Shown here: in pieces, positions 1 to 50,530 of the stretch
How positions within the stretch are numbered: the first letter of the stretch is position 1
How the letters are laid out: each line of letters opens with the position of its first letter
IMG/VR virus record: IMGVR_UViG_3300025015_000009
Coordinates: 1-64,000 of that record
Origin: a virus
Taxonomy: Duplodnaviria; Heunggongvirae; Uroviricota; Caudoviricetes
Length of the DNA stretch: 64,000 bases
Strand: one strand, 5' to 3'
The notes under the pieces: model-generated
Databases searched by the model: none
The model's input: the letters and a program-made list of their open reading frames with translations, nothing else
What the model was told of the DNA's origin: nothing
Position numbers and translations under genes: made by a program

Positions 1-34
1 ATCTTGGTTCCAGCTCATTTTATTTCTCCTTGTT

Positions 35-916
35 TTATGTTAGATAACGAATAATTACGATACCGGAGCCGCCGGTGCCGCCAGCAAAGCCTGGCGTACC
101 TCCACTGCCACCGCCGCCTCCGCCAGTATTTGCTGTACCCGCAGTACCCGCAGTTGTGCTAAAAATACCACCGTTTCCGCCACCTCCAAGACCGCCGTCG
201 CCGGGATTATTGCCATAAGCCGCCCTTCCACTTCCACCACCACCGCCGCCGTAATAAGTAGCTGAACCTGATATGGATGACAAAATACCTACACCACCAT
301 TGCCACCATAGGCACCATCTCCACTAGCAGCTTGTCCGACAGCCCCAGCGCCCCCACCTCCCCCGGCAGTAGCATCATCGCCAGCACCACCAGTTCCACC
401 GGAGTAACCTTGCCCACCTGTTCCACTACCGCTATTAGAACTTACCCCTGGCCCCCGCCCGCCGCCGCCGCCTGACCCACCGGGTCTCCCGCTAGAGTAA
501 TACCCGCCGCCGCCCCCGCCGCCGTTGGCTGTAATTGTAGAGAATGTAGAGTTGGTGCCATCACCACCAGGTCGCTCAGATGCTGGCGAACCGTCGTTAA
601 ATGAGGGAGCACCTCCAGCGCCAACAGTTATAGAATATGCTTGTGCTGTTACTGGAAAGCCTGTAGCAGCCCTAACTCCACCTGCTCCACCACCACCCGC
701 ACAAGTATCACCGCCAGCACCGCCACCTGCAACCACCAAATACTCAACATTCCCTGAACCGCTCGGAGTAAATGTTCCGCTCGAAGTAAACGTGTGGATC
801 GTGTAACCGCTGGCGTAGGTGATCGTGCCGCCTGTGGCAGAAAAAGCTACTCCGCCAGTAGCCAGAAGCATTTGCATTATCCCGCTCATGTTAGCCCCGT
901 GCCGCTGATAATCCAT
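35..916 (-). CDS. Glycine-rich (collagen-like) fibre-associated protein
   Basis: 293 aa, more than 50% Gly with GGxGG runs. Same strand as the downstream tail-fibre genes and overlaps their start. Confidence 0.4.
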   Translation of the reverse strand: MDYQRHGANMSGIMQMLLATGGVAFSATGGTITYASGYTIHTFTSSGTFTPSGSGNVEYLVVAGGGAGGDTCAGGGGAGGVRAATGFPVTAQAYSITVGAGGAPSFNDGSPASERPGGDGTNSTFSTITANGGGGGGGYYSSGRPGGSGGGGGRGPGVSSNSGSGTGGQGYSGGTGGAGDDATAGGGGGAGAVGQAASGDGAYGGNGGVGILSSISGSATYYGGGGGGSGRAAYGNNPGDGGLGGGGNGGIFSTTAGTAGTANTGGGGGGSGGTPGFAGGTGGSGIVIIRYLT

Positions 917-2067
917 TCTGTGCTTGTAACTTTAAGCGCAGTAGCCACCCCGTTCGCAGCAAGTGTCCTGCTGCCGGTAGTTCCGGCGCCAGCAAGGCGC
1001 ATCGTGTCAGTTGTGATAGCTATGGTGATTACGCCCCCTGCGTTCTGATTTACGAACGAGACCACCGAACCTATCGAGAATGCGACCGTGGTATTTGCCG
1101 GGATTGTGAACGTCCGCGCCGTTGTATCGGCAGATGGATGCAGGATGTGTTTGCCTGCGTCAGTCAATGCCAGGGTGTAGTTTGCCGATTGCGGATTTTG
1201 CAGAACGCCGAGGTAGGCGGCATCCGACACCGCCGTCCCATCAGCTTTCCTGACAAACACCCGATAGGTACTCGTGCTCTTGGCAACAAACGTCCAAACC
1301 TCACCAGCAGCAGAAGTCCGTGTCGCTGCGCCGTCAATATCGAAGGTAGCACCCTGCGTAAGTATCGTGCCAGTCAAGGGATAGAAATCACGGCTTGCAC
1401 CTGCTTGTGGTGCGTTGGCTATCGCTGTGATTGTTACCACTGCACCTGTGCCGTCCAGTACGTTACCGACCGCAGCAGCCCAGAAGTCCATCGTCGTGGC
1501 GTGTTGGGTGACATTGCTGCGAGCTGTGTTGATGCCACCTGTGAAGGTTTGACTGCCGGTGAAGGTGTTGGCACCGAGGATGGCAAGTGAGCTACTCGCA
1601 TCAGGTAACGTATAGGTCTTTTCTGTTGTTGTCGGGCCACTAAACTTAACAAATCCGTTGCCGGTGCCGCCATATGTTGACGCAATAATCTGAGTGAGCG
1701 AGTTAGATCCATCGAATGCGTTACCGTATATCGTTCTAGCAGTAGTTAACGTCGCGGCCGACCCTGTGATGGATCCATCGGCAAACGCAAGAGAATGGAC
1801 AGCCGTGCCATTATGGAACTTTAGAACCCCACCTTCGTTGTAGACATCCCCTGAAATTGGTGTGTTCCCAGATCCAGCAGGAATTAACAATGACCCACTA
1901 ACAGTGGCCGATACTGCTGGAGCGGTTATTTTCTTGGTTGCATTTAGCTGGCCGTTTATCGTAACGGCAGTTGATGTTACCGTGGCGATGTTTATGCTAT
2001 CTACTTCGATAACAAGTTCTGTTGTAGTGTATATTCTGTTAGAACTGTGATGGAACCCAATTGACAT
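886..2067 (-). CDS. Tail fibre protein (distal/receptor-binding type)
   Basis: Thr/Gly/Ala-rich. Contains IYGNAFDGSNSLTQIIASTYGGTGNGFVKFSGPTTTEKTYTLPDASSS, the same module repeated in the 53299..56847 protein. Confidence 0.6.
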   Translation of the reverse strand: MSIGFHHSSNRIYTTTELVIEVDSINIATVTSTAVTINGQLNATKKITAPAVSATVSGSLLIPAGSGNTPISGDVYNEGGVLKFHNGTAVHSLAFADGSITGSAATLTTARTIYGNAFDGSNSLTQIIASTYGGTGNGFVKFSGPTTTEKTYTLPDASSSLAILGANTFTGSQTFTGGINTARSNVTQHATTMDFWAAAVGNVLDGTGAVVTITAIANAPQAGASRDFYPLTGTILTQGATFDIDGAATRTSAAGEVWTFVAKSTSTYRVFVRKADGTAVSDAAYLGVLQNPQSANYTLALTDAGKHILHPSADTTARTFTIPANTTVAFSIGSVVSFVNQNAGGVITIAITTDTMRLAGAGTTGSRTLAANGVATALKVTSTEWIISGTGLT

Positions 2068-2070
2068 TTT

Positions 2071-2226
2071 ATATTTTCCATTCCTGGTGTTGTGCTATTC
2101 CTGCAAGAACTAGTGCTTCTTTAAGTTCGTTTACAGTTACCATCGCTGGTGTATTGTCTGCTAAGATCCATTCGACCTCAGCATTGCCCGAGTAAGTTAA
2201 TACATCGATTACTTTATTTATCATAG
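2071..2226 (-). CDS. Small hypothetical protein between fibre genes (possible fibre chaperone)
   Basis: 51-aa ORF MINKVIDVLTYSGNAEVEW... from hand translation. Not in the ORF track because it is under 60 aa. Confidence 0.25.
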
Positions 2227-2234
2227 ATTAAAGG

Positions 2235-5198
2235 TTACGCATACGTAACATCGACTGTTGACACAATCGACGTCCACTTTATGTTTGTTGCTGCTTTCCC
2301 TGTTACCATTACGCTGATGCCGCCGTTTACAGTGTCTGATATTACGTTGCAGTCCAATGCAAAATCCGTTTCGAATAATTCCACCTTCGCTACACCTAAA
2401 ATAGTTGTTGATGCTGCATCGACACCGCGACGAAGCACTCCTGTAAAAAGGTAGCCCGCCGCAATACTACCCTCGCTTGCCTTCTGCATCGCAACCACTT
2501 GTACTCTAAAGTTAGAAGCAGAATAGTTTGGTAGAACAGGTTGTCCTGGGATCGCAGTTGGTGTAGCATCGGTTGTGGTTACTGTCAACGACGCGGTGCC
2601 CAATGATAATGTTCCGTTTGCGAACGACAACCCCTCACCAATTGTAATTGGTGCCCAACTCGACAACCTACCTTGTGTGTCGACTGTGATAGACTGTAAT
2701 GTTGTACCAGTCCCAGGGTTAGAAACAGTTGTAAGTGCCGCGACGTTTCCACCTAATGTAATACTAGCTGATCCGTTTAGTGTGTTTGTTCCACCGAACT
2801 GAGAGAACGATATTGCATTGGTTCCAACGACTCCCCCGGCTGTTGCGGTACAAGCCCAACTTGTTGTTCCGTTTGTTGTCCCAGATTCAACCCAACAAAA
2901 GGCGCCAGGCATTTCGACCCAACTGTTAAAGTCGGTTGCACGAGTCAACACAAATGCAGTTCCACCATCACCTAAGGTGGTCACTGTATAGATTCCGTTG
3001 TATGCAATCTTTACGTCAACCTCGTTCTTAATCAATACTCTCGAGTTTAATACAACTGATATGTTGTCAATTACTAACGCCCCTGGGGCAGATGCAGTTA
3101 TTGTTGCTCCTACTCCGTTGGTTCCGTTGTTATATGTGTATGTTGGTAACCCAACGGTAGTTGCTGCAACAACAGAACTTTTTGCGTCCATACCAAGCGC
3201 GACCGTGTCAACGTACCGTTTTGTTACGGCGTGCATATCCAATGTTGGGTCCACCGCTAATGTGACAGTTTTATTTGCAGCAACAGTAACATCGCCGTTC
3301 AACGATACTGCTCCGGTACCAGTTTTAAATACCCCAGACGACAGTGATTGATCGTATGCATATGCCCCAGCGGCAAAAGTAAGCCCCTGCAGACCACCTA
3401 ACGACAACGATGCGGCACCTAATGCAGTTGATGTTGTTCCGATGGTAATAGTCGAGTTCGATAGTGCTACATTCGGAATGGCAGTAAACCCTGTTCCTAT
3501 AGACCCTGCGGTTAGTGCTCCGACTGTTACAATTGAAGATTGCCCTGCGTATGTTGCAGCAATATCGATGCTATTTGTTGCAACTGATATTCGGTCAGCA
3601 GTCCCAACAACATCTAATAGGTTACCAGTCTTTATTAGTCCGTTACCAGCAAGAATTGATGTTGCAGCACTAAATTGTGTGTACGTAATTGCAGTAACAT
3701 CGATTGTTCCGCCGCCTGCAACTGTTGATATCCACCCGGTGTCAGCTTGGGTGTCACCTAGTTCTACCCAAACGTATGCGTTATGTATCTCAGTCCAGGT
3801 GTCTGAATCTGTTGCCCTCAACCAGGTACCAACTTGGGCAACATATATGCCGTTTTGAGATGCAGTAGCTTGGTTCTTAACCAATACTCGGTTGCCAGCG
3901 ATTACTGTTACTCCGTCTATTGTTGGTAAATCAGCAAGTGCAGCGATATCTGCTGTTGTTGCGACCTTCGCTGATGCTAGTATATCTAGTCCAACAACGG
4001 CGTTGTCGACATACTGTTTTGTAGCTGAATGAAACGGCAACGTAGGATCAGCTGATAACGTTAACGTCTTACCTGACCCAATCGTAGTATCTCCGTTTAA
4101 AGAAACCGCACCTGATCCAGTTGTAAATGAGCCAGTGCCGTTTTGTGTAAACGTGTTATTTGCTGCTACAGTGACGTTCCCGTTCAACGAGACTGCCCCA
4201 GTTCCAGTACTAAAAGCTGTTGCTCCAGTCTGGGTTATACTAGAGACTACGTTGCCGTTTAAACTAATATTGCCTGTTCCTGTAGCAAACGTGCCTGTTC
4301 CGGTGCCAGCAAACGAAGTTGCAGTTACTAATCCTGTTACAGGGTTAAATGTTAACACCGAAGACGACACTTTAACAGCGTTATTTCCAGTTGATGAGTC
4401 TACCCATGTTATGTATTTGGTTGCATCTGTAGCAACATCGTTTGTAACAGTCGCCGCGGATGCCACACTCGCTGTCCCTGACAATGACGCAGTGATCGTT
4501 GATGCTGAGAAGTTCCCGCTTGGGTCACGAGCAACAACTTTAGATCCGGTGTTTGCGTCGGTTGCGTCAACCGCCCATGTTGTTGTGGCAGCTCCTGTGA
4601 AGTTGTTCCCGGTTAAATATTGACCTCTGGTCAGTGTACTAGAAACGCTTGTTGCTACTCCGTATACTCGGGCAACTGTTAGATCTTTGTTAAGATTCCA
4701 TCTGTCGTCAGCGGAAGTATATAATATTGTTGCGTTAGCACCTTCTAGTGTGATGCCACCGCCGTTTGCTGCGGCAGCACTCACTGCACCGTTCGCTAAT
4801 ATGATGTTCTTATCTGCTATCTCTAAATCTGTTGTGTTGATTGTTGTCAGCGTACCATTGACAGTCAAGTGACCGTATATGTTTAAGTTGCCACCGATAG
4901 TAGTATCTTGTGTTACACCTAATCCACCGACTACAATTAACGCACCCGTAGTTGGTGTCGTAGAATTAATCGTGTCGTTACCGATTGTTATGGCTGCGGT
5001 AGTGTTAAATGCAACTGATCCAGACACTGTTAACGCATCGACTGCTAACGTAGCAATGGTAGCGTTAGGAAAAACAGCGGCAGTTAATAGTGCCTCTAAG
5101 TAAAGGACATTCGCGTTAATAGTGGTAAATGCAACACGTAACGGGTCACCTAGACCGTCATTCGGGAATTCGCCTGTGTAAACTGGTAGTATTGGCAT
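2235..5198 (-). CDS. Large tail fibre / long fibre structural protein
   Basis: 987 aa, beta-rich Thr/Asn/Gly composition. Internal repeats FxTGTGAVSLNGDVTV (four copies) and two TK(Q/R)YVD motifs typical of phage fibre proteins. Confidence 0.65.
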   Translation of the reverse strand: MPILPVYTGEFPNDGLGDPLRVAFTTINANVLYLEALLTAAVFPNATIATLAVDALTVSGSVAFNTTAAITIGNDTINSTTPTTGALIVVGGLGVTQDTTIGGNLNIYGHLTVNGTLTTINTTDLEIADKNIILANGAVSAAAANGGGITLEGANATILYTSADDRWNLNKDLTVARVYGVATSVSSTLTRGQYLTGNNFTGAATTTWAVDATDANTGSKVVARDPSGNFSASTITASLSGTASVASAATVTNDVATDATKYITWVDSSTGNNAVKVSSSVLTFNPVTGLVTATSFAGTGTGTFATGTGNISLNGNVVSSITQTGATAFSTGTGAVSLNGNVTVAANNTFTQNGTGSFTTGSGAVSLNGDTTIGSGKTLTLSADPTLPFHSATKQYVDNAVVGLDILASAKVATTADIAALADLPTIDGVTVIAGNRVLVKNQATASQNGIYVAQVGTWLRATDSDTWTEIHNAYVWVELGDTQADTGWISTVAGGGTIDVTAITYTQFSAATSILAGNGLIKTGNLLDVVGTADRISVATNSIDIAATYAGQSSIVTVGALTAGSIGTGFTAIPNVALSNSTITIGTTSTALGAASLSLGGLQGLTFAAGAYAYDQSLSSGVFKTGTGAVSLNGDVTVAANKTVTLAVDPTLDMHAVTKRYVDTVALGMDAKSSVVAATTVGLPTYTYNNGTNGVGATITASAPGALVIDNISVVLNSRVLIKNEVDVKIAYNGIYTVTTLGDGGTAFVLTRATDFNSWVEMPGAFCWVESGTTNGTTSWACTATAGGVVGTNAISFSQFGGTNTLNGSASITLGGNVAALTTVSNPGTGTTLQSITVDTQGRLSSWAPITIGEGLSFANGTLSLGTASLTVTTTDATPTAIPGQPVLPNYSASNFRVQVVAMQKASEGSIAAGYLFTGVLRRGVDAASTTILGVAKVELFETDFALDCNVISDTVNGGISVMVTGKAATNIKWTSIVSTVDVTYA

Positions 5199-5258
5199 AT
5201 TGTGTTCGTATCCTTGTTTTAATATTTATCAAGAACAAGATATTACAAAATGCAGCCA

Positions 5259-5290
5259 TAAAAAAAGGCAACACGTATGTTGCCTTTAAT
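5259..5290. terminator. Rho-independent terminator (bidirectional hairpin)
   Basis: aaaaaaAGGCAACacgtatGTTGCCTtt: a 7-bp perfect stem flanked by an A-run and a T-run, just downstream of the infA-like gene. Confidence 0.6.
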
Positions 5291-5312
5291 AGTAGAACAG
5301 TTATAGTTATTA

Positions 5313-5534
5313 TTATTTACTTCGGTATATGATTCTGCCTTTGGTTAGATCGTATTGAGATATCTCAACGTCGACTGTGTCACCCAAACATATGTTGATA
5401 TGATTCATTCTCATCTTACCACCGATGTAAGCGAGAATAGGATCTGGTATTTCTGCTACTTTGACTCGGAATGTTGCATTTGGTAGCAACTCGTTTACTA
5501 CACCGACTAACCGTAATAGTTCTTCTTTGGCCAC
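5313..5534 (-). CDS. infA: Translation initiation factor IF-1 homologue
   Basis: The 73-aa sequence aligns along its whole length with bacterial IF-1 (MAKE..G.V.E.LPN..FRV......I.GKMR.N.I....GD.V.VE...YDL.KGRI..RS). S1-like OB fold. Confidence 0.8.
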
Positions 5535-5537
5535 GAG

Positions 5538-6092
5538 TTACTGCACTCCTTTGCTTGGACGTGCTACATCGCCGGCTGCTTTCCGGGATCGAGGTCGACG
5601 CGGTTTCTTCTTAGTAGCGGGCTGTGCGGCAGTCGAGTTGTCCGATGCTACTTTCTCACGAACACCGTTAGTCTGAGCAGGAGTTGGCTTAGGTGGAACT
5701 TTCTTTGTTGGTTTCACGCTGTCTATTCCGTCTAGAATAGCATGAGCAACATTTGTTGCTTGTTGTTGGCCCAGTAAGAAATCCATCTCTTGCTCGATGT
5801 ACCCTTTAACCAAGACATCATATGCCAATGCTATCCTGTTAAGAACACCGTTAGCGAATAACGCAAATGGTGCAGTCCAACTAATGTAGTTCACTGGAAC
5901 TCGTTGTTTCCAGTATGCAGTCGTAACCGTTACTCCGAAGGTAACACCTATTAGATCACCAGTGCGCTCTATACACACGGTAGTATCGTGACCAGGTGAC
6001 GAACAATCACAGGCTGTCCTGTATAATAGAAAGTCGTCATACTGTTTCAGTACCATTACTCCATCAGCAGGAGTTTGCGCTTTAGTTTCCAT
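5538..6092 (-). CDS. Hypothetical protein with basic Lys/Arg/Pro-rich C-terminal tail
   Basis: 184-aa ORF. C-terminal KKKPRRPRSRK suggests nucleic-acid binding. Confidence 0.3.
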   Translation of the reverse strand: METKAQTPADGVMVLKQYDDFLLYRTACDCSSPGHDTTVCIERTGDLIGVTFGVTVTTAYWKQRVPVNYISWTAPFALFANGVLNRIALAYDVLVKGYIEQEMDFLLGQQQATNVAHAILDGIDSVKPTKKVPPKPTPAQTNGVREKVASDNSTAAQPATKKKPRRPRSRKAAGDVARPSKGVQ

Positions 6093-6099
6093 TTGTTCC

Positions 6100-6450
6100 T
6101 TATGTATTATTTACTATGTTCATCGGCACAACCGTCTGGTCTTCATCTTTTATTAACCATACCCGTTGCTTTGTTGCAAATACACGCCTAATGCCGTTTG
6201 CTATTTCGTCTACTGTTGTACCTTGACAGATAAAGTCTTTGGTAGTTGCGTTATACACCAGAAACGTGTGAATATTATCCAGTGCGAATTCTTCGATGAA
6301 CAATACCGGTTCATCAATTAACTTTTGTTCTCGAATGTCCGCAACAACTTGAGTCGTAACCTCAGTGCAGAAAGACGCAACTGCTTTCCATATTCTACTG
6401 AAGAGTGTACACAATACGATACTCATTACAAAATATAGCAAGAAGTCCAT
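6100..6450 (-). CDS. Hypothetical protein
   Basis: 116-aa ORF in a co-directional compact gene array. Confidence 0.3.
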   Translation of the reverse strand: MDFLLYFVMSIVLCTLFSRIWKAVASFCTEVTTQVVADIREQKLIDEPVLFIEEFALDNIHTFLVYNATTKDFICQGTTVDEIANGIRRVFATKQRVWLIKDEDQTVVPMNIVNNT

Positions 6451-6477
6451 GTTTTATTCCTCAGTCTGATGTACTAT

Positions 6478-6900
6478 TTATGTAATTGTAGCATCATTCT
6501 GATTAGAAGTCAACCAAAGTTTGTCTGTTTCTGGGTCATTTGACATATTATTGCCCGTTAACAATGGTAAGAAAAATGTACGTTTCTGTAGTCCACCAGA
6601 TGCTTCAGATATAAAGTCGAACAAACTACCTATGCAAAATGTAACAGAAGTTCGGTTCTGTTTGGTTATTTGGGCGTTTGGGTAGAACGGTTTGATCTGA
6701 AGTATAGCAAACGTAACAAATCCATGCCATCGGGTTTCCCATTGGGACCATTTGGTGCGATCGTCGGCCGTAAACCGGATGTAACGATTAAAGGCGCGAC
6801 AATACGTGTGGACCTTAACATCAAGCGCAGCACAATTTGCTTGTATCGTCTTAACCCTTGTATCCAGTGTCAGAGGCGGACGGTTTCTTTGTGACCGCAT
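6478..6900 (-). CDS. Hypothetical protein
   Basis: 140-aa ORF. Confidence 0.3.
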   Translation of the reverse strand: MRSQRNRPPLTLDTRVKTIQANCAALDVKVHTYCRAFNRYIRFTADDRTKWSQWETRWHGFVTFAILQIKPFYPNAQITKQNRTSVTFCIGSLFDFISEASGGLQKRTFFLPLLTGNNMSNDPETDKLWLTSNQNDATIT

Positions 6901-7256
6901 ATTTTTAGTAGAGTGAGGTATGTATCGTATGCTTCTTTAAGAGCGAGGTTGTTTCGTCGCAGTCTTTTTTCTTCTTCGACTTGACTCATTATTTGCTCAA
7001 ATACGCGCCTGGTCTCGCCGCCGAACATACTAGTTTCGTAAAATATACGATCAATTCGAGCTAACGCGTCAAGTTTACTCAGTGGGATTTCAACAACAAA
7101 TAACGGTTCGCTTGAAAAGTCACTGACCGTTGGACTACTTGAGCATTGATGGAACGTAGCATAGTGTGATCGTGTAACTGCTCGTTTACTCGAGCTGATC
7201 ACGTTAATTTGGTACTTATTCGTGAAGTTCGCCATTTGTTCGTGGTCAGTCATCAC
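6870..7256 (-). CDS. Hypothetical protein
   Basis: 128-aa ORF. Confidence 0.3.
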   Translation of the reverse strand: MMTDHEQMANFTNKYQINVISSSKRAVTRSHYATFHQCSSSPTVSDFSSEPLFVVEIPLSKLDALARIDRIFYETSMFGGETRRVFEQIMSQVEEEKRLRRNNLALKEAYDTYLTLLKICGHKETVRL

Positions 7257-7560
7257 AGTGATTTCCTATCATAGCCTCGAGGAGAGTGTATTGCTCGTAT
7301 GCGGCCTTAAGCGCAGCATACTTCTCTAACTTCTCGAGGTCAGGTTGCAAAATGAGCAACCTGCTATTCATCTTATCTAACATAGCCGACAAACTTTTTC
7401 CGCCGATCACAACGTCGGGCGCTGTTATTGCTCCGGAGAACGTTGTTGATCCAGCTGTTTGCATTGTTAATCCAGATCCAGCTGTTACTATATTACTAAT
7501 TACACCGAACGTCAGATTACTACCAACAGTTGTATTTGCCATATTTGCCATATTTGCCAT
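7246..7560 (-). CDS. Hypothetical protein (N-terminal MANMANMAN triplet repeat)
   Basis: 104-aa ORF. A 9-bp unit is repeated three times at the start codon region. Confidence 0.3.
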   Translation of the reverse strand: MANMANMANTTVGSNLTFGVISNIVTAGSGLTMQTAGSTTFSGAITAPDVVIGGKSLSAMLDKMNSRLLILQPDLEKLEKYAALKAAYEQYTLLEAMIGNHCDD

Positions 7561-7620
7561 AGTAGTTTACGAGTAAGATGTATTTTTATATGTAATAATA
7601 GCAAATGGTTGCATATTACA

Positions 7621-7650
7621 TATAAAAGTACACATTAATAATGTGTACTT
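7621..7650 (-). terminator. Rho-independent terminator
   Basis: Perfect inverted repeat AAGTACACATTA/TAATGTGTACTT followed on the minus strand by TTTTAT, downstream of 7656..7901. Confidence 0.55.
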
Positions 7651-7655
7651 CGTTG

Positions 7656-7901
7656 TTATGCGAACGCGCGGGAGCGTGATCCATACTCGTCTCTTGCTGA
7701 CACACTGTATGCAGTGCGACCAGCGTAGTTTTTGCGAGTTTTTACTTTAAGTCCAACTTGGCGAAACTCGGTCAGGCGAGCACGAAGATTCTTAATGCCG
7801 AAGGTTGCACTTGCTTGTGCTGAAGTAATCTCGCGACCAGTGCCACGTAGATGTTGTTCCAAAAACTCTTTTTGTGTTGTTGCGATTTTAATAAATGACA
7901 T
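7656..7901 (-). CDS. Small basic hypothetical protein (possible DNA-binding)
   Basis: 81 aa, Arg/Lys-rich. Confidence 0.3.
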   Translation of the reverse strand: MSFIKIATTQKEFLEQHLRGTGREITSAQASATFGIKNLRARLTEFRQVGLKVKTRKNYAGRTAYSVSARDEYGSRSRAFA

Positions 7902-8012
7902 GTGTTGTATCTCCTATGTGAATGCTATGTATGTAGCATTTGTATAATATAGCAAACGATGTTCACTATCTCAAGCAGTTTGGTGATGTGTCACGGTGGG
8001 TATATTACCGAT

Positions 8013-8222
8013 TTATACAACGATGTGTTCTGGTTCTGCCACCATACTAAACTTCCTGGTGTTCTTTTCGAGTAAAAACGATCCATCACCTTGATCAGTA
8101 AACAGTAAGGTATCTCCTTCCTTCCATCCCATCTTGCTTATCAGCTCTTCTGGGAAAGTTAGAATGGCACCCTCGGGATCGTTTGGATCTTCTTCGACTA
8201 CAGACGTATACACTTTTGACAT
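8013..8222 (-). CDS. AbrB/MazE-like (SpoVT-AbrB fold) small protein
   Basis: 69 aa. The segment ...ISKMGWKEGDTLLFTDQGDGSFLLEK resembles a looped-hinge-helix swapped-hairpin domain. Confidence 0.35.
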   Translation of the reverse strand: MSKVYTSVVEEDPNDPEGAILTFPEELISKMGWKEGDTLLFTDQGDGSFLLEKNTRKFSMVAEPEHIVV

Positions 8223-8277
8223 GATTGCTCCTTAAAGTAAAAGTATAAGGTTATTTGCAACCAGTGTCAACTTGTTG

Positions 8278-9018
8278 CTATTCGATTGTCAATGATTTGT
8301 CTACTGCTTCGCGCCGAGCAGTATATAGCTTGCTTATATACCCTTCATTGCGGAGTACTTTGAACGCCAGATTCTCTGTTGAGAACTCGCCGTGTTCAGC
8401 CAATCCCGACTTCCGCATTTTCCGAATTTTTTCAGTTAGCGTCGTGTATGCACTAACATCATCTGAGTTCGAATCTACCAGCGTGTCGATTGTTAGCATT
8501 AGATCTAGGACTTTTGCCTCTATTGCGGCATCGTTTATTGATGGTTTGTGGTACGATGGAACTCGTAACCATTCGTTGTTTAGTAAACTAAAAACACCTT
8601 GAGAGATAGGGGGTGTGGCAGTGTCTTCAACGTACAATTCTACTGTATACCCTTTTATCTGAATGTTGTGTGCTGTGTTCCACACTTCCTTTTTTGCAGT
8701 AAAAAGCTCAACCGTTACGTCTTTTTGTGCAATTTTATCGTAATCAACTATTACGTGAATGTCGAAGTCACTAAATTCAGTCCAGTTGTAGTTTGCATTA
8801 GAACCAGTTAGAACAATATCCGTCACCTCAAGGTTGGGTAAGTTCAGGAACTCAATGAACGCATCTGCGATATCCAGCAGTGTTTCTCTGACATGTTGCC
8901 GTAACGTATTCTTCTCCCATGCAATTGGGTTGAGAGTGTTGCTGTACTTAACATTCTTATCTAATAGGATCGATTCGTCGACGTTATATATTTCGTTCAT
9001 GCAAATATTTATGCACAC
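8278..9018 (-). CDS. Nucleotidyltransferase-fold protein (Pol-beta superfamily)
   Basis: LTGSNANYNWTEFSDFDIHV matches the hG[GS]x(9-13)DxD signature of minimal nucleotidyltransferases. It carries a C-terminal extension. Confidence 0.4.
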   Translation of the reverse strand: MCINICMNEIYNVDESILLDKNVKYSNTLNPIAWEKNTLRQHVRETLLDIADAFIEFLNLPNLEVTDIVLTGSNANYNWTEFSDFDIHVIVDYDKIAQKDVTVELFTAKKEVWNTAHNIQIKGYTVELYVEDTATPPISQGVFSLLNNEWLRVPSYHKPSINDAAIEAKVLDLMLTIDTLVDSNSDDVSAYTTLTEKIRKMRKSGLAEHGEFSTENLAFKVLRNEGYISKLYTARREAVDKSLTIE

Positions 9019-9061
9019 TAGCCAGAACTAGTGTGCATAGTTAGAACCGATTTGCGAACGA

Positions 9062-9388
9062 TTAGGCGTCGACTGGATCTTCTGTTGCTGCTGGCGTTGT
9101 TACTTTCGCCTTTGTTTTTTTGGTTTTGGTAACGGGGACAGTCTTTGCACCGTTGTATTTCTCGTCTGCTTCTTCGATAGCACATCGCGCGCTGTCGATT
9201 GACATGAGCTCAGATGTCAAGAGATACTTAACGACATCTGTTTTTTCCATTGGGTTAGGAAGCTGAATCAGCTCAATGTTCTCATGCCCGTTCTTTATCA
9301 AGATCTTAACGCGAGTTAGATCGTTCGCGAATCGTACTTTTGTACCGTCTTTGTACGTCGAAACCCCTGCTACTGTAAACATATACAA
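9062..9388 (-). CDS. Hypothetical protein
   Basis: 108 aa. A TTGACA-17-TATACT promoter lies upstream at 9445..9480. Confidence 0.3.
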   Translation of the reverse strand: MYMFTVAGVSTYKDGTKVRFANDLTRVKILIKNGHENIELIQLPNPMEKTDVVKYLLTSELMSIDSARCAIEEADEKYNGAKTVPVTKTKKTKAKVTTPAATEDPVDA

Positions 9389-10398
9389 CTCCTTCTTCTA
9401 ATTATTGTTGGACAGCCTTTCTGCCAACTTCTCACTACTAGATTAAGTATAACTATTTCGGTATATGATGTCAACCGAAAATAATATGGAATTTAACCAA
9501 AGTCGTCAACTATGCATTGAGTTCTCCTGCTATTTCCCCCGAACTGAAACCCAATGAGTAAGCAGCGTTAAGCAAGAACACGAGGCGGGTTACTTCTTCG
9601 ACCGATAGTGTTGTGGTTTGAACTAAAGTGTCTTCGAAGTAGATCCCAAAAACGGTTCGCCCAAAAAGAGAGGACCGCACTGGTTTAAGACTGTACAACT
9701 CTGGCGGGATGTTCATCAGTTAACTCGTTCAGGGTGTTTTAGAAAAAGTGCAAGGAGTGCCACTCCGATTCCTATTGCCCAACTTCCTGTTCCCAATCCA
9801 ATGAGGGTTGACCCGCCGGCCCAACAAATTAAATTAGCAATCCCGACAACACTCATAATACACCACACTTTCCATCGAATGGCACATTTGCCTTAATTGC
9901 TGCTGACTGTGCATTGTAACACGCAATACTCACTTGGGCATTTGCGTATTTTACTACCATCGACGGTAGCCCCATAACAAGACCAACACCAATAAGCATT
10001 ATAGCGAACCATTTACCTTCCATCTTGATCTCCTTCAACTTTAAGTGTTGTTGCCTCGTTTACTGTGCGAAGAATACATGCTCCAATTCCCATTGGAGTT
10101 TTGCTGCCCCAGGTTGTGTAATATCGATTTGGCTGATCCTCGATCTGTTTTAGATCAAACATTCGGATAACTTCTTTTCCGATCTCAACTAAGGCAGCGT
10201 CTGTTATGTTCATCACCGAACTCTCACTCGATATCCGCGGTCCTGCCAATTAGATGCCCAACCTGCCGCTGCATCTACAGAAGTAAACGATTCGCTGTCG
10301 AACAACACACCTTCACAAAATACTTCAACAATAATATTCTTCATATTAGTTCCTTATCATTAATTAACTTAGGTTTTGGATAGAATGGCGGCAGTGGA

Positions 10399-18844: not shown

Positions 18845-19132
18845 TTACTGCCCGATTCCTCTGGTATCGTTTATGCCCCTGTGGGCAATATACCAATCAT
18901 GCAACAATATGCTAGATACTATACCGATTGCACCACCTAGTACAAACGCGACCAACTCAACCGACCCTGCATCCGGAACCAGCTTGAACGAGAATATCTG
19001 CATTGTTCCGATTCCCAACGATAGCAAGAACGACATTCCTTTTTGTCCAAGCCGAACTATTTGCGATTGAAACCCCAATAACAAGACAATAAAGAAACTA
19101 CTCGAAAACAGAAGAATCGAGTCAAATATCAT
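18845..19132 (-). CDS. Small membrane protein
   Basis: 95 aa with 2-3 predicted TM helices, embedded inside the paralogue array. Confidence 0.4.
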   Translation of the reverse strand: MIFDSILLFSSSFFIVLLLGFQSQIVRLGQKGMSFLLSLGIGTMQIFSFKLVPDAGSVELVAFVLGGAIGIVSSILLHDWYIAHRGINDTRGIGQ

Positions 19133-20536: not shown

Positions 20537-21013
20537 TTAATGATTGCTGATTCGTTCGTGCATAACATTGTCAAATGTACCACCATGCTCGAGGGCACAA
20601 TCTGTATCGTCACTGAACTCAAATGCATACACCACCATGTTGCTGCTCGCATTCCTGATAAAGCGATCAATGAACTCATCACGATACTTATCTGTTGCTG
20701 CGGTATAGGCGTCCCAGTCACACTCGCCGTTGGGTAGAGTTTTAAAGTCGTCGTACTCAGGCGCGCCGCCTATCCACCCGTTGCACTTTTCTCTCAGATA
20801 ATCAAGGTTTGTTGGTTTTTGATCCTTCATCTGCCTGTATATTTTTTCGGCAGCAACCGTTACCGACACCGAATAATCATAATAATTAATGCTTGTTTGT
20901 CCACCAAATACATAGTTCTCGATGGTAGCAGGTGTGATTTCCATGTTAACTGGAAATGCAACGATGAAACTGCTGCTACTTGAGTTGCTTACGAACCCAT
21001 TGCGAATCTTCAT
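20537..21013 (-). CDS. Paralogue array member 5
   Basis: The likely start is MKIRNGFVSNSSSSSFIV, preceded by the SD TAGGAG. The track ORF extends to 21034 with MFSRRTE. Confidence 0.5.
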   Translation of the reverse strand: MKIRNGFVSNSSSSSFIVAFPVNMEITPATIENYVFGGQTSINYYDYSVSVTVAAEKIYRQMKDQKPTNLDYLREKCNGWIGGAPEYDDFKTLPNGECDWDAYTAATDKYRDEFIDRFIRNASSNMVVYAFEFSDDTDCALEHGGTFDNVMHERISNH

Positions 21014-21537
21014 TTCGGTTCTCCTACTAAACATTCTTTAAATTGGGACGACACCTGGCGACCATCAAATTGATCGCCATATTTTTCTTTTAGCACAGCA
21101 ACCACAGTACCCATCGACTTTTGCTCGAACGGAAGATTCTTCTCATTGATAACAGATCGGATATCTTCTCGAATCGTCGAGTTTGTTAATTTACTTGGTA
21201 AGTATTTTTCGAGTATTAACAGCTCAAACACTGTGTCTGTTGCTTTTGCTGAAATATGTCGGGCATCGTATATAACAAGGTTCTCTTTCAAGTTCTTCTC
21301 AAACTTACGAAGAACTCCGATGACCTCTGCATCAGTTGGTTCGCGGTTACCTGCGTTCTTTCCTACCATCTCAGACTCGCCGATAACAGTTGTTAACAGT
21401 GACGCAGTTGCGATGTTCCTTAGTTTACGGGCAAGCAGCTGATCTGCTTTGATTTTAGTCAATATACTCATGTTACCTCCTGTGGGGTCTTCAAATATAG
21501 TTATAGAACTGTAGCTCTTAGGATATACTACTTGCAT
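21010..21537 (-). CDS. GatB/YqeY-domain protein
   Basis: Aligns along its whole length with the YqeY family (...KADQLLARKLRN..., ...EKYLP..L....I...I...., ...MG.V.A.LKEKY....DG..V...). Confidence 0.65.
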   Translation of the reverse strand: MQVVYPKSYSSITIFEDPTGGNMSILTKIKADQLLARKLRNIATASLLTTVIGESEMVGKNAGNREPTDAEVIGVLRKFEKNLKENLVIYDARHISAKATDTVFELLILEKYLPSKLTNSTIREDIRSVINEKNLPFEQKSMGTVVAVLKEKYGDQFDGRQVSSQFKECLVGEPK

Positions 21538-21540
21538 TCT

Positions 21541-22698
21541 TTAGTCAACCACAATCGGAATGTATTTGCCCATTGCTGCAACATGCGGCTTATGCACAAT
21601 AGCAGCATCGTATAAATCCGGAAACGTAACACATTTCCTACAGTCACCGCAGATGGAATGATCTGTGGTTTCGATATTCTTGTTACGAAATGCAACCGTT
21701 TTCGGATGATTCCACACTTCCTTATCAAAGTTACTAATTTTGGTTAAGTCGATTCCTGTTTCCCATCCTCGTTCACCTTCAGTAAAAGAACACGGGAAAA
21801 ACTCGCCGACGACGTTCGCATACATAGAAAACATAGTTGATTCGCAGCTCTCAGACAGTTGGACAAGTTGTTCGTATTTTGGATGGCCTTTCATTGCAGC
21901 CAAAAACGTCGGAGCTGAGCAAGAATCGAACCCGATTCCGATATCTCGATCGAACGCATATTGTACTAGTCTGCGGTATTCCTCGACACTCTTCAATGTC
22001 GTCATCTTGTTCCGTTTTCCTTTTGGCTTCAGAGTCAGAAACACAACAGCTTTCATCTTTTCCAGCCGAGGGTCAGAAACCGCATCATCGATAAGTTGAT
22101 AACAATCTTTGAGACTTTCGTTGCTCAAGACCATATGTATGTTCACTTGACTCATTCCGGCGTCGGTTAGTTTTTTCACAGCATTGTAACAAATATCTTT
22201 GTTTTCATATCGACTAACAGCAATTCCGCCCAACTTAGAACTCAACACATCAACCCACTTGCTGTCTAGCTCCCAGCCATTGATAGTCAGGTTCGGGACA
22301 ACACCTGGGTTCCATTCGTTGTCTCGGCAATAGTCGATCATCTTAATAAGGTCGGGGTTTCCGTTGAGATTTCCGATCCCAAATGCAATCTGTGTTAATG
22401 TTTGCGGAATCTTGTCGAATATGACCTTAAATGTTTCAAATGACATGTTCCGTCCGACTCGGGTATTTGTCTTGTAACAAAATGAGCACGGCACTGCGAC
22501 GGTACTTCCGACTGCTGGTACGCCATCACATACTTCACTTACTTCAATATCAAAGATCTCAACTGGGCCCGACACCGGGTCATCTTCGGCTGTTTTGCCC
22601 CATCGCGCAAACTTGCCAGTCTTTGTGTCAAAGTAATAGTTATAGTTCGCGCTTAATGCTCGCTTAATACCAGATTCTTTGTTGTAGAGAATATGCAT
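21541..22698 (-). CDS. Cys-rich Fe-S / possible non-canonical radical-SAM-like enzyme
   Basis: CDGVPAVGSTVAVPCSFC has C-x13-C-xx-C spacing. A glycine-rich GIGNLNGNP segment is present. The C-terminal half has multiple cysteines (CSAP, CES, FPCSF, CGDCRKC). Confidence 0.3.
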   Translation of the reverse strand: MHILYNKESGIKRALSANYNYYFDTKTGKFARWGKTAEDDPVSGPVEIFDIEVSEVCDGVPAVGSTVAVPCSFCYKTNTRVGRNMSFETFKVIFDKIPQTLTQIAFGIGNLNGNPDLIKMIDYCRDNEWNPGVVPNLTINGWELDSKWVDVLSSKLGGIAVSRYENKDICYNAVKKLTDAGMSQVNIHMVLSNESLKDCYQLIDDAVSDPRLEKMKAVVFLTLKPKGKRNKMTTLKSVEEYRRLVQYAFDRDIGIGFDSCSAPTFLAAMKGHPKYEQLVQLSESCESTMFSMYANVVGEFFPCSFTEGERGWETGIDLTKISNFDKEVWNHPKTVAFRNKNIETTDHSICGDCRKCVTFPDLYDAAIVHKPHVAAMGKYIPIVVD

Positions 22699-25286: not shown

Positions 25287-26291
25287 TTATACCGCTTCCT
25301 TTAAAAGATGCATAATATTTCGATTCTCATAATGAGTTAGGTTGTAGTCGTGGCATACGTCTAAACAATTTTTCTTGCAAATCGGATCTGTGTACGAGTC
25401 ATGTGTTAAGTACCAATTAACTCGTTCCTTTCGCATATTACCACTCACTGTACCGATCGGTTTACCGTCTTCACGCATGTAGATGATACACGGGTAATGT
25501 TTATTGCCCATGACTGCCATATCATCTAATACTAGACCACAGGTACTTGTTTTGCCGCAAGACAACCCTCGAACCGGAAGACCGGCCGCCAGGTTCTTAA
25601 TCCGATACGCCAGAATTGGGTACTTACTTAATATATCTTCGTCTATTTCCAAAGACGGCAACTTCTGCCCGTCTTGTGCCGCTGGTATAACACGAATGTC
25701 TGATACCCCAAGACCATCTGCAAACCGAATAATGTCTTCAGCAGCACTTTTGTTATCTGGCGTCAGCACGATGCCAACGGTAACATACGTTAGTTTAGAC
25801 AGCTCTTTAATCGCATTAACGACTCGTTTAAATGCACCTTTGCGACCACCTGCCATCTTGTCACCGTCTTCAGCACAGCAAGCATCGAGTGAAATTGAGA
25901 AGTCGTTTACACCTCTTTCAAACAGATCACGATACAACTTCATGCTGGACGCACCATTGGTCGAAATAGCAATCCGCTCAACACCGCGGGCCTTTGCTAA
26001 CGAGACCAACTCGCCGAGACCTTTATACAACGTTGGCTCACCGCCTGAAAAGCGAATGTTCTTTAGTTTCTGGTCGCCCCACAGGTTCACAGTGAGCTTT
26101 GCCTGTTCTATGTCCATGTCATGTCCGCCAACCGAGCGGCAATACGGGCATTGGAAGTTACATCGGCCTGTAAGAATAAGCTCAGCCCGCCACAGTGGTG
26201 ACAGTGTGTTTGACTGCATTGCACGAGCGGTAGACAGGGTGTAGAATCCAATGTCTTTCAAATCATTTAACATGTTATTCCTTGTGTTCAC
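25287..26291 (-). CDS. Radical SAM enzyme with SPASM/twitch-like C-terminal Cys cluster
   Basis: CNFQCPYC is the CxxxCxxC motif. GGEPTL is present. C-terminal cysteines: CGKTSTCG...C...CKKNCLDVC. Confidence 0.7.
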   Translation of the reverse strand: MNTRNNMLNDLKDIGFYTLSTARAMQSNTLSPLWRAELILTGRCNFQCPYCRSVGGHDMDIEQAKLTVNLWGDQKLKNIRFSGGEPTLYKGLGELVSLAKARGVERIAISTNGASSMKLYRDLFERGVNDFSISLDACCAEDGDKMAGGRKGAFKRVVNAIKELSKLTYVTVGIVLTPDNKSAAEDIIRFADGLGVSDIRVIPAAQDGQKLPSLEIDEDILSKYPILAYRIKNLAAGLPVRGLSCGKTSTCGLVLDDMAVMGNKHYPCIIYMREDGKPIGTVSGNMRKERVNWYLTHDSYTDPICKKNCLDVCHDYNLTHYENRNIMHLLKEAV

Positions 26292-26300
26292 TTAATTAGT

Positions 26301-27317
26301 TTAAAACGAAACTTGCTTCATAACAAAGTCTCGGCAAATCTTACTGATAGGACCGTTCAGGTCTTTTCCGGTGAACCCAGACGCAGCAATAGTATCGAGT
26401 TCTTCTTTGAAAATGTCTTTCATAACATTCTTGATGAACTCGCCGAGTTTCGGAAGTTCAACTTCGCCGCCGTTCAGTAAATCAAAAGTAGTCTGCGCCA
26501 TCTGCTCCAACCGTCCGTTGTGAGCAAGTGTTTCAGCGAGCTGCTTGATGTCGTTGATTCGTTCAACATCAACCGTAGCAAGTGTCTTAACTTTCGACGC
26601 ACTGTGCTTTTCACCTTTAACTTTAAACCAAAATCCGGAATCAGAGTATGCTGGATTTACGCAACGCCACACAACCCCTTCGCCTACTCCATTTTCACCA
26701 AATGCGGTACCGACTGGACATGCAGCTTCGACGAGTTCTGTGATCTCATTGAGTTTATTCTGAACCTCATGCGGTGCGTCGAAATTAATCTCCATCTCGA
26801 ACCAGGGGAAGTAGTAGATGCAGTAGATGCCCGACGTTGTAGGGACTGTTCCGGTTGGCAACGACACGAGTTCCTCGCACACCGACACGACTTGGCTTCT
26901 TGTCAGATACGTTTTTTCTCCTGCACTGTCTACTGTAGCAATACCAAAAATAACAAACATCTTTGGCAATGCAGAAAGTGCAACACCTTTCTGAATACCG
27001 CTGCCACACCATTCACCAAAAATAACAATATCGTCATCAATCATGCCAGATGGGTCGAACAAGCAAGCGACGTTCTCAGCAATAGCCAGCAACGTTGTTT
27101 TGTTTGCTTCACAGAACATGGCTGATCCGGCATTGTCTTTCTCGGGCGTGATAATATTCTCACGTGATTGGCACCAGTACTCACCATTGGGGTGTACTCC
27201 GAATCCCAAGTTCGTATTATGGACACAAACGCCATTGGCAAAGAAGTTATGGTTTTTCCTAACTGACAAATCATAGCAAACCTCAATTGGAATTTCTTTT
27301 TTTCTCACTAATTTCAT
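26301..27317 (-). CDS. RNA ligase 2 (Rnl2-like) C-terminal fragment, preceded by an intein C-terminal segment
   Basis: The N-terminal 34 aa MKLVRKKEIPIEVCYDLSVRKNHNFFANGVCVHN carry intein blocks F and G. The extein TNLGFGVHP...FGEWCGSGIQKGV...EGVVWRC matches Rnl2 motifs I (second half), III and IV. Confidence 0.7.
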   Translation of the reverse strand: MKLVRKKEIPIEVCYDLSVRKNHNFFANGVCVHNTNLGFGVHPNGEYWCQSRENIITPEKDNAGSAMFCEANKTTLLAIAENVACLFDPSGMIDDDIVIFGEWCGSGIQKGVALSALPKMFVIFGIATVDSAGEKTYLTRSQVVSVCEELVSLPTGTVPTTSGIYCIYYFPWFEMEINFDAPHEVQNKLNEITELVEAACPVGTAFGENGVGEGVVWRCVNPAYSDSGFWFKVKGEKHSASKVKTLATVDVERINDIKQLAETLAHNGRLEQMAQTTFDLLNGGEVELPKLGEFIKNVMKDIFKEELDTIAASGFTGKDLNGPISKICRDFVMKQVSF

Positions 27318-28125
27318 CGCATAAATCCTTTATTTTATTAATTTGTTTTCGCGCGTTTTCAATCCACGCACTTTCCCAGATAACGATCGTTGTATATCCG
27401 ATCGATTTCAACATTTTATGTCTAGCAATATCTTTTTGCCACTTCTCACCAGCTGTCATCCGAATAGCAGAGTTATAATCTGACGCTTTGTATTTCCTTG
27501 GATTACAATGCCACATATCACCATTGTATTCAATTACAATTTTCAAGGTTTCATTACACTCGTCTACTTGCATCTGCCCAATTTGGACATGACTTTCAAA
27601 TCCGAGTTCTTCTATGAAACTATGTAAATCTGTGTGACCTTTAGACATATACCCGACACGAGTCTGGGCAAAAACTTTAGCAAAATGTTGAGCTGCATAT
27701 ATTGGATCTTTTAACTTTTCTTGTAATCCTTTACTTGCTCTGTTTACCTGGAGTACTTTCTCTTCATCTGTTTTCTTATTCCATCGTTCTGTTGAAAAAT
27801 TTCCGGAATTTAATTTTATGTTGCCATCAGCATAATGTGTACCGTTAAATCCGGCAATACTACACATCAACGGCCTTGCACATTTGCCACAGTATTCTTT
27901 GTTAATAATGTCAACTCGTTTAAAAAATACGTCAACACGCTCAGTAAAAATACTTAAACACTTATCACACATTACCTCGACTCTGGGTTTGGCAGTTTTT
28001 CGGCCATTCTTCCGATGCCAATTCTCTTTAAAATTTATAACATGTGGTCCCTTTAATATCATCGGCTGCCTTCTGATTGTAATAATTATAATTATATTTA
28101 TACAATAAAGCGTCGCACGGGACAA
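27283..28125 (-). CDS. Free-standing endonuclease (Zn-finger plus Vsr/DUF559-like PD-(D/E)XK domain)
   Basis: CDKC...CGKC zinc ribbon. The C-terminal IVIEYNGDMWH...D...R...GYTTIVIWESAW resembles the very-short-patch-repair-like endonuclease fold. It lies in a third reading frame between the two Rnl2 fragments. Confidence 0.45.
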   Translation of the reverse strand: MSRATLYCINIIIIITIRRQPMILKGPHVINFKENWHRKNGRKTAKPRVEVMCDKCLSIFTERVDVFFKRVDIINKEYCGKCARPLMCSIAGFNGTHYADGNIKLNSGNFSTERWNKKTDEEKVLQVNRASKGLQEKLKDPIYAAQHFAKVFAQTRVGYMSKGHTDLHSFIEELGFESHVQIGQMQVDECNETLKIVIEYNGDMWHCNPRKYKASDYNSAIRMTAGEKWQKDIARHKMLKSIGYTTIVIWESAWIENARKQINKIKDLCDEISEKKRNSN

Positions 28126-44552: not shown

Positions 44553-44553
44553 T

Positions 44554-44943
44554 ATGAAGGCAACAGAATTTTTAACCGAGAAGTTCGTTATTAAGGATAA
44601 AATCGGTGGTATCGAATACGGAATCGGTGACCATTTTATGACGCAATGGCAACTACCTGAACGCAAGCACATTACATGGAATCAAATTACTCGTATTATC
44701 AAACGTATTCCGTACATAAAACCGAAACTGTTACAGATGATAAACTTTAATAAGTTTTACCTCAGAGACTCTGAAACCGGAGTAGAACTCGGGTGCAAGT
44801 TTACTACCTTTGGCAAGCCTGAGGTGTTGCTATTATATATTAACACTGTAGTATCAACTGATCATGTCCGAAAATCTGACACCCCAGTTATTGTTGTTAA
44901 CGGACCAGTAAAGTCACTAACTATACCGCAAGGCGCACAATGA
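44554..44943 (+). CDS. Hypothetical protein, same N-terminal family
   Basis: Begins MKATEFLTEK. Confidence 0.45.
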   Translation: MKATEFLTEKFVIKDKIGGIEYGIGDHFMTQWQLPERKHITWNQITRIIKRIPYIKPKLLQMINFNKFYLRDSETGVELGCKFTTFGKPEVLLLYINTVVSTDHVRKSDTPVIVVNGPVKSLTIPQGAQ

Positions 44944-50525: not shown

Positions 50526-50530
50526 CTTCT

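Follow-up and report, generated by a model that had tools for sequence, protein, structure and literature searches.

Introduction

Initiation factor IF-1 is essential and universally conserved, and gates the ribosomal A site in initiation. Phage copies have been catalogued before. The translation genes of huge phages include IF1 (Al-Shayeb et al., 2020; PMC7162821), as do those of soil huge phages (PMC11748809), and a member of the IF-1 family, under the annotation 'translation initiation factor 1A', belongs to the 39 single-copy genes conserved in Jug phages (PMC12880540). IF1 transcripts were prominent in the viral-fraction metatranscriptome of Lake Baikal (PMC9611531), and the kinase of phage T7 phosphorylates host IF1-3 (PMC6375957). 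Here, an infA-like gene (positions 5313..5534, minus strand) was analyzed in the first 64,000 nucleotides of IMG/VR virus record IMGVR_UViG_3300025015_000009 (Caudoviricetes); the whole of this 64,000-nt stretch is referred to as the window. The gene is a genuine phage-borne orthologue of bacterial IF-1, and it carries Asn at a ribosome-contacting position that is Arg in most cellular copies sampled.

IF-1 relatives were found in 35 records of a phage collection, including 15 Lak megaphages, 6 Bacteroides phages and the cultured Sinorhizobium phage Phosso, and were encoded on 408 IMG/VR contigs. Phage IF-1 has thus already been reported as a kind, and the novelty of the gene is lower than an earlier note on this DNA had implied.

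Identity and fold of the phage IF-1

The IF-1 coding sequence was called from the list of open reading frames (ORFs) and supported by sequence, profiles and a structure model. It encodes 73 amino acids from a GTG start (5534..5532) and is closed by three stop codons in a row (TAA TAA TAA). Profile searches returned Pfam PF01176 (E = 4e-19, 68.3 bits, cutoff 30.2) and the NCBIfam 'infA' equivalog TIGR00008 (84.4 bits, cutoff 61.15), the latter aligned from residues 3-72 to positions 1-69 of 69. The protein fails both the eIF-1A model (17.2 bits, cutoff 102.9) and the aIF-1A model (13.1 bits, cutoff 108). All 12 of 12 matches in a PDB sequence search were bacterial IF-1, headed by T. thermophilus IF1 (E = 3e-20). 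Residues 1-73 aligned to 72-aa IF-1 chains from the PDB as a single domain with no N- or C-terminal extensions.

An AlphaFold2 model, which is a prediction and not a solved structure, was built from 62 homologues (mean predicted local distance difference test score 89.6). Its strands (residues 7-17, 21-26, 33-37, 53-58 and 65-72) formed a five-stranded oligonucleotide/oligosaccharide-binding (OB) barrel with a short helix (40-43) between strands 3 and 4. The model was compared with the PDB using Foldseek. Ranks 1-14 were all bacterial IF1, and 30S-bound E. coli IF1 (9fco_I) was superposed with template modeling scores of 0.91/0.95 and a root-mean-square deviation of 1.0 Å; the structural neighbors were, in order, IF1, eIF1A and RsgA. 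A structure search of BFVD returned one bacterial-type viral IF-1 only, the other close matches being giant-virus eIF1A.

Profile, sequence, structure model and genome context therefore agree with the proposal of the earlier note that the 73-aa protein is an end-to-end IF-1 homologue with an S1-like OB fold. The competing identity named there, a CspA-like or other S1-domain protein, was put to the same searches and excluded: no cold-shock-domain family was found by Pfam at E <= 1, no Csp was present among Foldseek PDB matches at E <= 0.001, the eIF-1A and aIF-1A scores fell below cutoff, and the 14 highest-ranked structures were IF1.

Contacts with the 30S subunit

Residues of T. thermophilus IF1 that contact helix 44 (h44), the 530 loop and protein uS12 were taken from the list in bioRxiv 10.1101/2023.10.27.564398, after Carter 2001. 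The list was mapped unambiguously onto the window protein, with fourteen listed residues confirming the numbering. Identical in the window protein were Ala1, Lys2, Glu3, Pro18, Ala20, Arg23, Tyr35, Gly38, Lys39, Arg41, Met42, Tyr60, Asp61 and Arg66. These include the 530-loop contacts Lys2, Gly38 and Lys39 (window K3, G39 and K40), the uS12 contacts Tyr60 and Asp61 (window Y61 and D62), and the h44 contacts Pro18, Arg23 and Arg41 (window P18, R23 and R42). The C-terminal Arg (E. coli Arg69, PMC4611024) was retained as window R71. Arg64 was replaced by Lys, a conservative change that is also found in E. coli.

Apart from Arg64, the lone listed exception was Arg46. This residue contacts A1493, and the window protein has Asn47 in its place. 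Arg46 is one of four h44-contacting residues described as conserved in all domains of life (bioRxiv 10.1101/2023.10.27.564398).

Survey of sites 41 and 46 in viral and cellular IF-1

Sites 41 and 46 were compared across 79 IMG/VR loci, 80 cellular genome loci and 80 bulk-metagenome loci. The sequences were picked by similarity to the window IF-1, so that the samples are small, interrelated and not independent, and the protein itself is short. At site 46, cellular genome loci carried Arg (75) or Lys (5; n = 80). The bulk-metagenome loci among the matches listed gave a similar count (Arg 76, Lys 4; n = 80); these matches were <=62% identical to the window IF-1, provided no new syntenic relatives, and are most likely cellular. 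IMG/VR loci carried Lys (44), Arg (18), Asn (10) or Gln (7; n = 79). Asn or Gln was therefore present at 17/79 viral loci, 0/80 cellular loci and 0/80 bulk-metagenome loci among those sampled; every sequence observed with either residue was viral or unlabelled metagenomic. The same was true of Lys at site 41, which was Arg in every cellular sequence sampled. Lys at site 46 is not virus-specific, because sampled cellular genomes carry it too (Ignavibacterium, Kapaibacterium and some Firmicutes); it was also found in Lak and Bacteroides phages. Tyr60 and Asp61 were invariant in 79/79 viral loci.

After dereplication at 90%, the residue pair at sites 41 and 46 was tabulated for 56 viral clusters (RR 3, RK 13, KK 14, KR 8, RN 12, RQ 6) and 19 cellular clusters (RR 14, RK 5). 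Arg41, the A1492 contact, was replaced by Lys in 22/56 viral clusters, usually together with Lys46 (e.g., L006-L008, L013, L019, L021, L028 and L037).

The nearest relatives of the window IF-1 all have Asn at the Arg46 site. Those with usable context were phage-like: locus L001 was syntenic with the window, L165 and L166 were accompanied by T4 gp9/10-like and MazG genes, and L005 was located on a 155-kb IMG/VR contig. The cultured phage Phosso also has Asn, and Sinorhizobium itself has Arg. In a neighbor-joining tree, the window IF-1 was grouped with L001, P0003 and P0004 (64% bootstrap) within a larger Asn-type set without a cellular member. The window protein is thus related to, and distinct from, cellular copies (<=62% identity; viral or unlabelled metagenomic tree neighbors at modest support), and would belong to an Asn-type group seen here only in viruses or unlabelled metagenomic sequences.

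Start codons were recorded for the same genes. Non-ATG starts were found in the window and L001-L004 (GTG) and in Phosso, L009 and L012 (TTG), and all seven Gln46 viral genes (L014, L017, L036, L057, L059, L061 and L066; match ~10001..10216) start with GTG. The cellular infA start codon was ATG in 78/80 loci. A non-AUG start on an initiation-factor gene recalls the autoregulation of infC. On the phage-like contig L002 (ENA k119_541853, 786..7592), an IF-1 60% identical to the window copy, with a GTG start and Lys at site 46, was found next to genes for peptide deformylase, Fe/Mn superoxide dismutase, ferredoxin, an Fe-S assembly protein and a protein of >2,200 aa.

Genome context of the IF-1 gene

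The window is phage DNA. Among its genes are those for a tail-fibre protein, rIIA, rIIB, an apparently intein-interrupted ribonucleotide reductase (RNR), a YqeY-like protein and an RNA ligase, besides many small ORFs that match no family, and minus-strand ORFs cover ~87% of it. The exact IF-1 and its upstream neighbor orf184 (described below) were found together on many metagenomic contigs, at least 10 of which were 0.2-1 Mb in length (NCBI, JGI, Logan, ENA). The longest contigs with the exact IF-1 and orf184 were 317,956 and 318,013 bp. Because the exact gene and its neighbor recur on many long contigs, the source is a jumbo phage of about 318 kb that has been assembled repeatedly. As for the IF1 genes of huge phages, the gene lies among phage genes on a phage genome of >200 kb.

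No match was obtained when 4 kb around IF-1 was searched by megablast against 50,697 phage records, and rIIA, a phrog_7293 protein and a 549-aa protein were at most 27-43% identical to proteins of T4-like and jumbo phages. Judged by these comparisons, none of the deposited phages is closely related to the window phage.

Selection and age of the IF-1 gene

L001, a 10-kb metagenomic contig that represents a diverged relative, was used for comparison. Gene order in L001 was that of the window: promoter, orf116 homologue (32% identity), orf184 homologue (41%), IF-1 and hairpin. The L001 promoter (TTGACT-17-TATAAT plus TG, 11/12 matches) was found at the equivalent site, the IF-1 GTG directly follows the TAA stop of the orf184 homologue, and a weaker hairpin with a T-run occupies the terminator position. 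Read from this GTG, the L001 protein is 73 aa; the version of the gene caller was 65 aa.

Between the window and L001, IF-1 was 75% identical in protein sequence, and the flanking proteins were 32-41% identical. Nonsynonymous and synonymous differences (pN = 0.18; pS = 0.82, saturated) and identity by codon position (74/89/42%) were calculated. Because 75% identity was kept despite saturated synonymous sites, with neighbors at 32-41%, these values indicate that purifying selection on IF-1 is strong, and much stronger than on its neighbors. The composition of the gene (GC 0.396; GC at third codon positions 0.365) was inside the spread of window genes, and the closest cellular IF-1s, nearly all from Alphaproteobacteria, were only 58-62% identical. 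The gene has therefore long been resident in the phage and was not captured recently.

Operon structure and signals

The IF-1 gene is apparently the last cistron of a three-gene unit on the minus strand. The first cistron, orf116 (6100..6450), encodes a protein whose N-terminus is hydrophobic; the product of the second, orf184 (5538..6092), has a basic C-terminal tail. Both were taken from the ORF list, and neither protein matched a family. A sigma70-like promoter was predicted at 6485..6513 (minus; TTGACT-17-TACAAT with an extended -10 TG, 10/12 matches), 35 nt upstream of the orf116 ATG. The IF-1 GTG is located 3 nt past the orf184 stop codon, and a Shine-Dalgarno-like AAGGAG (5546..5551, minus), read from the sequence and presumed functional, lies 11 nt upstream of the GTG within the last orf184 codons. 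Translational coupling of orf184 and IF-1 is likely on this arrangement. A more general use of unusual initiation signals in the window was considered and rejected; a Shine-Dalgarno-like 4-mer was present upstream of about half of crude ORF calls, compared with 12% background.

An intrinsic terminator was identified by scan and RNA folding at 5257..5287 (minus). It consists of a 10-bp stem (AAAGGCAACA/TGTTGCCTTT) spanning 5287..5264 with a 4-nt loop, followed by a run of seven T. Its folding energy was -15.7 kcal/mol (z = -2.65), and it heads the list of terminator-like sites in 2000..10000. The terminator hairpin that the earlier note had assigned to IF-1 is therefore real. That note had also placed the gene between unrelated phage genes; the neighbors are indeed phage genes, but IF-1 is not free-standing among them, being apparently the end of the orf116-orf184-IF-1 unit.

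Several searches were made for relatives of orf184. No match was found in Pfam or PHROG, by tblastn against phages, or in IMG/VR using an alignment-derived pattern, and the sole match among 5.8 billion proteins was orf184 itself. Its sole known homologue is encoded in L001 (8260..8859), at the same position and with 41% identity. The 184-aa protein upstream of IF-1 in L165 was unrelated to orf184, and there is therefore no general orf184/IF-1 module. In the orf184 protein, Cys/His residues close to the N-terminus are conserved, and the C-terminal tail is rich in proline and strongly basic (KKKPRRPRSRK); the protein could be a nucleic-acid-binding partner.

Strong consensus promoters were also detected by promoter scan ahead of small genes further upstream (7974, 8270 and 9474). 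We infer that the orf116-orf184-IF-1 region is of early type and would be transcribed by the host polymerase. Directly downstream of IF-1 is the gene for a 987-aa tail-fibre-like protein. A 17-20 nt motif, (C/A)TAAATATTAAAACAAGGAT, was observed just upstream of the start of this gene (5211..5227, minus), once in the 64-kb window. The motif is kept in L001 as a tandem pair (9101..9120 and 9142..9161), and the 20-nt form CTAAATATTAAAACAAGGAT, counterpart of the window copy, follows the L001 hairpin ahead of the next large gene. It may combine a late promoter with a ribosome-binding site; the TAAATA part resembles the late promoter of T4.

Proposed role and alternative explanations

Host RNA polymerase would most likely transcribe IF-1 early, from the sigma70-type promoter. 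The gene would be expressed as the last cistron of orf116-orf184-IF-1, coupled to orf184, and closed by the terminator just before the late tail-fibre gene. Like cellular IF-1, the protein would most likely dock on the host 30S subunit at the A site, among h44, the 530 loop and uS12. Once bound, it would add to or replace host IF-1, and could maintain or bias the assembly of 30S initiation complexes on phage mRNAs as the host is taken over. Asn47 probably alters the duration or tightness of its stay on the decoding center; loss of binding would not be expected. In cryo-EM structures, IF1 holds A1492/A1493 flipped out, interferes with inter-subunit bridges and leaves around GTP hydrolysis (PMC13345285). 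Since IF1 stabilizes the flipped A1492/A1493 and must leave, an altered A1493 contact makes a shift in residence time or fidelity plausible. Manipulation of host translation initiation is likewise plausible, as proposed in the huge-phage literature (PMC7162821).

An ordinary working IF-1 that supplements or replaces the host factor, with modest tuning included, was given a probability of roughly 0.6. A working, 30S-docking factor is the best supported interpretation because the uS12 and 530-loop contacts, which would be purposeless off the ribosome, are invariant across viral copies. Some points weigh against it. Canonical function cannot be assumed, because Arg46 is described as conserved across all domains and is Asn47 here; as the site holds Asn, the protein was filed as an IF-1 homologue, and functional equivalence to cellular IF-1 is not claimed. 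In the literature searched, no experiment on any phage IF-1 came to light. The promoter at 6485..6513 is a consensus match only, and read-through from the upstream promoters is possible. The nearest cellular IF-1s (Alphaproteobacteria) do not appear to identify the host; assignment of a host by IF-1 similarity was rejected, given identities of only 58-62% and a phage-like GC of 0.40 for the gene.

The residue at site 46 raises the alternative of an altered-function or antagonist IF-1, which would dock in the A site, handle A1493 differently and compete with the host factor to change initiation kinetics or fidelity, for example by faster release with less proofreading that favors phage starts, or by a block of host initiation during shut-off. 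Such a protein would account for Asn in the window and all of its nearest relatives, for Asn or Gln in 17/79 IMG/VR loci and in none of the 80 cellular loci or 80 bulk-metagenome matches listed, for the scarcity of the RR pair in viral clusters (3/56, versus 14/19 cellular), and for Asn in Phosso where Sinorhizobium has Arg. It is also in keeping with the contact of IF1 with the flipped A1492/A1493 and its need to leave before bridges form (PMC13345285). However, the other listed contacts are kept and purifying selection is strong, both of which fit an ordinary factor equally well. Asn is still able to hydrogen-bond a base, the samples are small, related and query-similar, and support for the tree group is 64%. 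Altered function in this sense is considered unlikely. A broader proposal can be advanced tentatively, with the odds against it: that phages evolved an IF-1 class of their own, in which one or both arginines holding the flipped-out decoding bases are replaced (Arg46 by Asn/Gln, Arg41 by Lys). Its members would tune 30S residence and make initiation on phage messages quicker or less strict than the host factor allows. The window and Phosso proteins would both belong to such a class; among the sequences sampled, both kinds of replacement were restricted to viral or unlabelled metagenomic ones.

A further alternative places the protein off the ribosome, as an RNA chaperone or anti-termination OB protein acting on phage transcripts in the manner of cold-shock proteins. 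E. coli IF1 has RNA-chaperone activity and can substitute in part for Csp proteins. The OB fold is common to cold-shock proteins, a phage 'CspC' was found at BFVD rank 31 (E = 4.5e-3), and the gene is coupled to orf184 with its strongly basic tail. Yet no cold-shock-domain match was obtained at E <= 1, the top structural matches are ribosome-bound IF1, and Tyr60, Asp61, Lys2, Gly38 and Lys39, which would have no role off the ribosome, are invariant or nearly so in viral copies; this explanation is highly improbable. That the gene is not a phage gene at all, through host contamination, mis-assembly or a decaying passenger, is effectively refuted. Several phage-collection records with an IF-1 match are contigs of just 1.5-4 kb that could derive from a host, and some IMG/VR contigs with a cellular-type Arg/Arg IF-1 may include host flanks. 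The window gene, in contrast, was recovered exactly, with the same neighbors, on at least 10 independent contigs of 0.2-1 Mb; its synteny and operon signals are kept in L001; synonymous sites are saturated at 75% protein identity; and its composition is phage-like, with the closest cellular copies at ~62%.

A working phage IF-1 that docks on the host 30S subunit therefore remains the preferred reading. As an example of a phage copy the locus is clean: purifying selection is strong, the small operon is conserved and the background is that of a jumbo phage. If the Arg46 to Asn change alters 30S binding, release or fidelity, large phages would retune host initiation and not merely top it up. Because Phosso is cultured and carries the Asn variant, the question of residue 46 is open to genetics and biochemistry.

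Other features of the window

The YqeY-like protein (21010..21537), which the earlier note had cited as a second translation-related gene, was recovered by Pfam (PF09424, E = 1.3e-15) and PHROG (phrog_1460). Its gene is located directly downstream of that for the 385-aa phrog_7293 protein (21010..22698 for the pair, minus), which shares 43% identity with proteins from KP15-like phages of Klebsiella; one of these proteins is annotated 'Fe-S oxidoreductase'. A radical-SAM protein is encoded 3 kb from this pair (25287..26291, minus). ARAGORN called a tRNA-Asp of 89 nt (18969..19057, minus) that overlaps a plus-strand ORF and would have an unusual anticodon, ATC. An Rfam search over the whole window returned no tRNA or other RNA family at gathering score. 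The call was considered as support for a translation theme and rejected as probably a false positive, with no Rfam match, which would mean that the 64-kb stretch has no tRNA genes.

The RNR locus (48454..51619, minus) appears intein-split. After the N-terminal part (50531..51619, phrog_367) come an endonuclease-like ORF (49467..50525, phrog_945) and then an ORF (48454..49467) with an intein C-terminal splicing motif and then the RNR barrel domain; GC falls to 0.37-0.38 at this locus. The RNA ligase ORF (26301..27317, minus, PF09414) also starts with an intein C-terminal splicing motif (residues 13-34), and is overlapped by the ORF upstream of it, 27283..28125, which gave a weak restriction-endonuclease-like match (PF18741, below cutoff). 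The region 26301..28125 may be a second intein or homing-endonuclease insertion.

The first 2 kb of the window (1..2067, minus) have a GC of 0.55, compared with 0.43 window-wide; ORF 35..916 there matches phrog_2295 and carries a glycine-rich domain (PF21722). The sole sizeable plus-strand block (43914..46195) consists of four consecutive ORFs, and GC and AT skew both change sign at this block.

Comparison with known systems

Bacterial IF-1 (E. coli P69222; T. thermophilus PDB 1HR0/5LMN) is like the window protein in its length and its single S1-like OB domain. The window protein is 56% identical to T. thermophilus IF1 and ~49% identical to E. coli IF1 over the structural alignment, and keeps the 530-loop, uS12 and most h44 contact residues of the bacterial factor. 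Unlike bacterial IF-1, it is phage-encoded and <=62% identical to any cellular IF-1 found. The segment around Asn47 is remodelled (NHINICLGD versus NYIRILPGD), one residue is inserted in the beta2-beta3 loop, and Pro59 is replaced by Gln. The gene also differs from cellular infA (ATG in 78/80) in its GTG start and its coupling to an unrelated upstream gene.

The IF1 genes of huge, Lak and Jug phages are, like the window gene, of bacterial type and carried on phage genomes of >200 kb; huge-phage IF1 was proposed to intercept or redirect host translation (PMC7162821). Lak IF-1 is 72 aa and 49-51% identical to the window copy. Lak and Bacteroides-phage copies have Lys at the Arg46 site, whereas the window copy has Asn. 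The top match in the phage collection was the 'translation initiation factor IF-1' of Phosso, a cultured jumbo phage (PV764938.1, 469 kb), at 56% identity. Phosso IF-1 resembles the window protein in having Asn at the Arg46 site (KMRKNNINILLGD) and a non-ATG start (TTG). Unlike the window, it has a Clp-family ATPase and a MutT-like hydrolase upstream and no orf184 homologue.

Phage-encoded bS21 and bS1 (Mizuno et al., 2019, PMC6375957; PMC7162821) are also small parts of the initiation machinery and are considered substitutes for their host counterparts on the 30S subunit. Unlike these, IF-1 is a transient factor and not a subunit, so that its effect would be kinetic or stoichiometric rather than structural. 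The eIF1A proteins of giant viruses (Klosneuvirus, Catovirus and Marseillevirus LCMAC202) have the OB core fold in common with the window protein and are likewise virus-borne A-site initiation factors, but are of eukaryotic type, 146-239 aa in length and 15-24% identical to it. Relative to the earlier catalogue of phage IF-1 genes, the distinctive point of the window gene is the virus-restricted replacement of Arg46 by Asn or Gln, which it has in common with the cultured phage Phosso.

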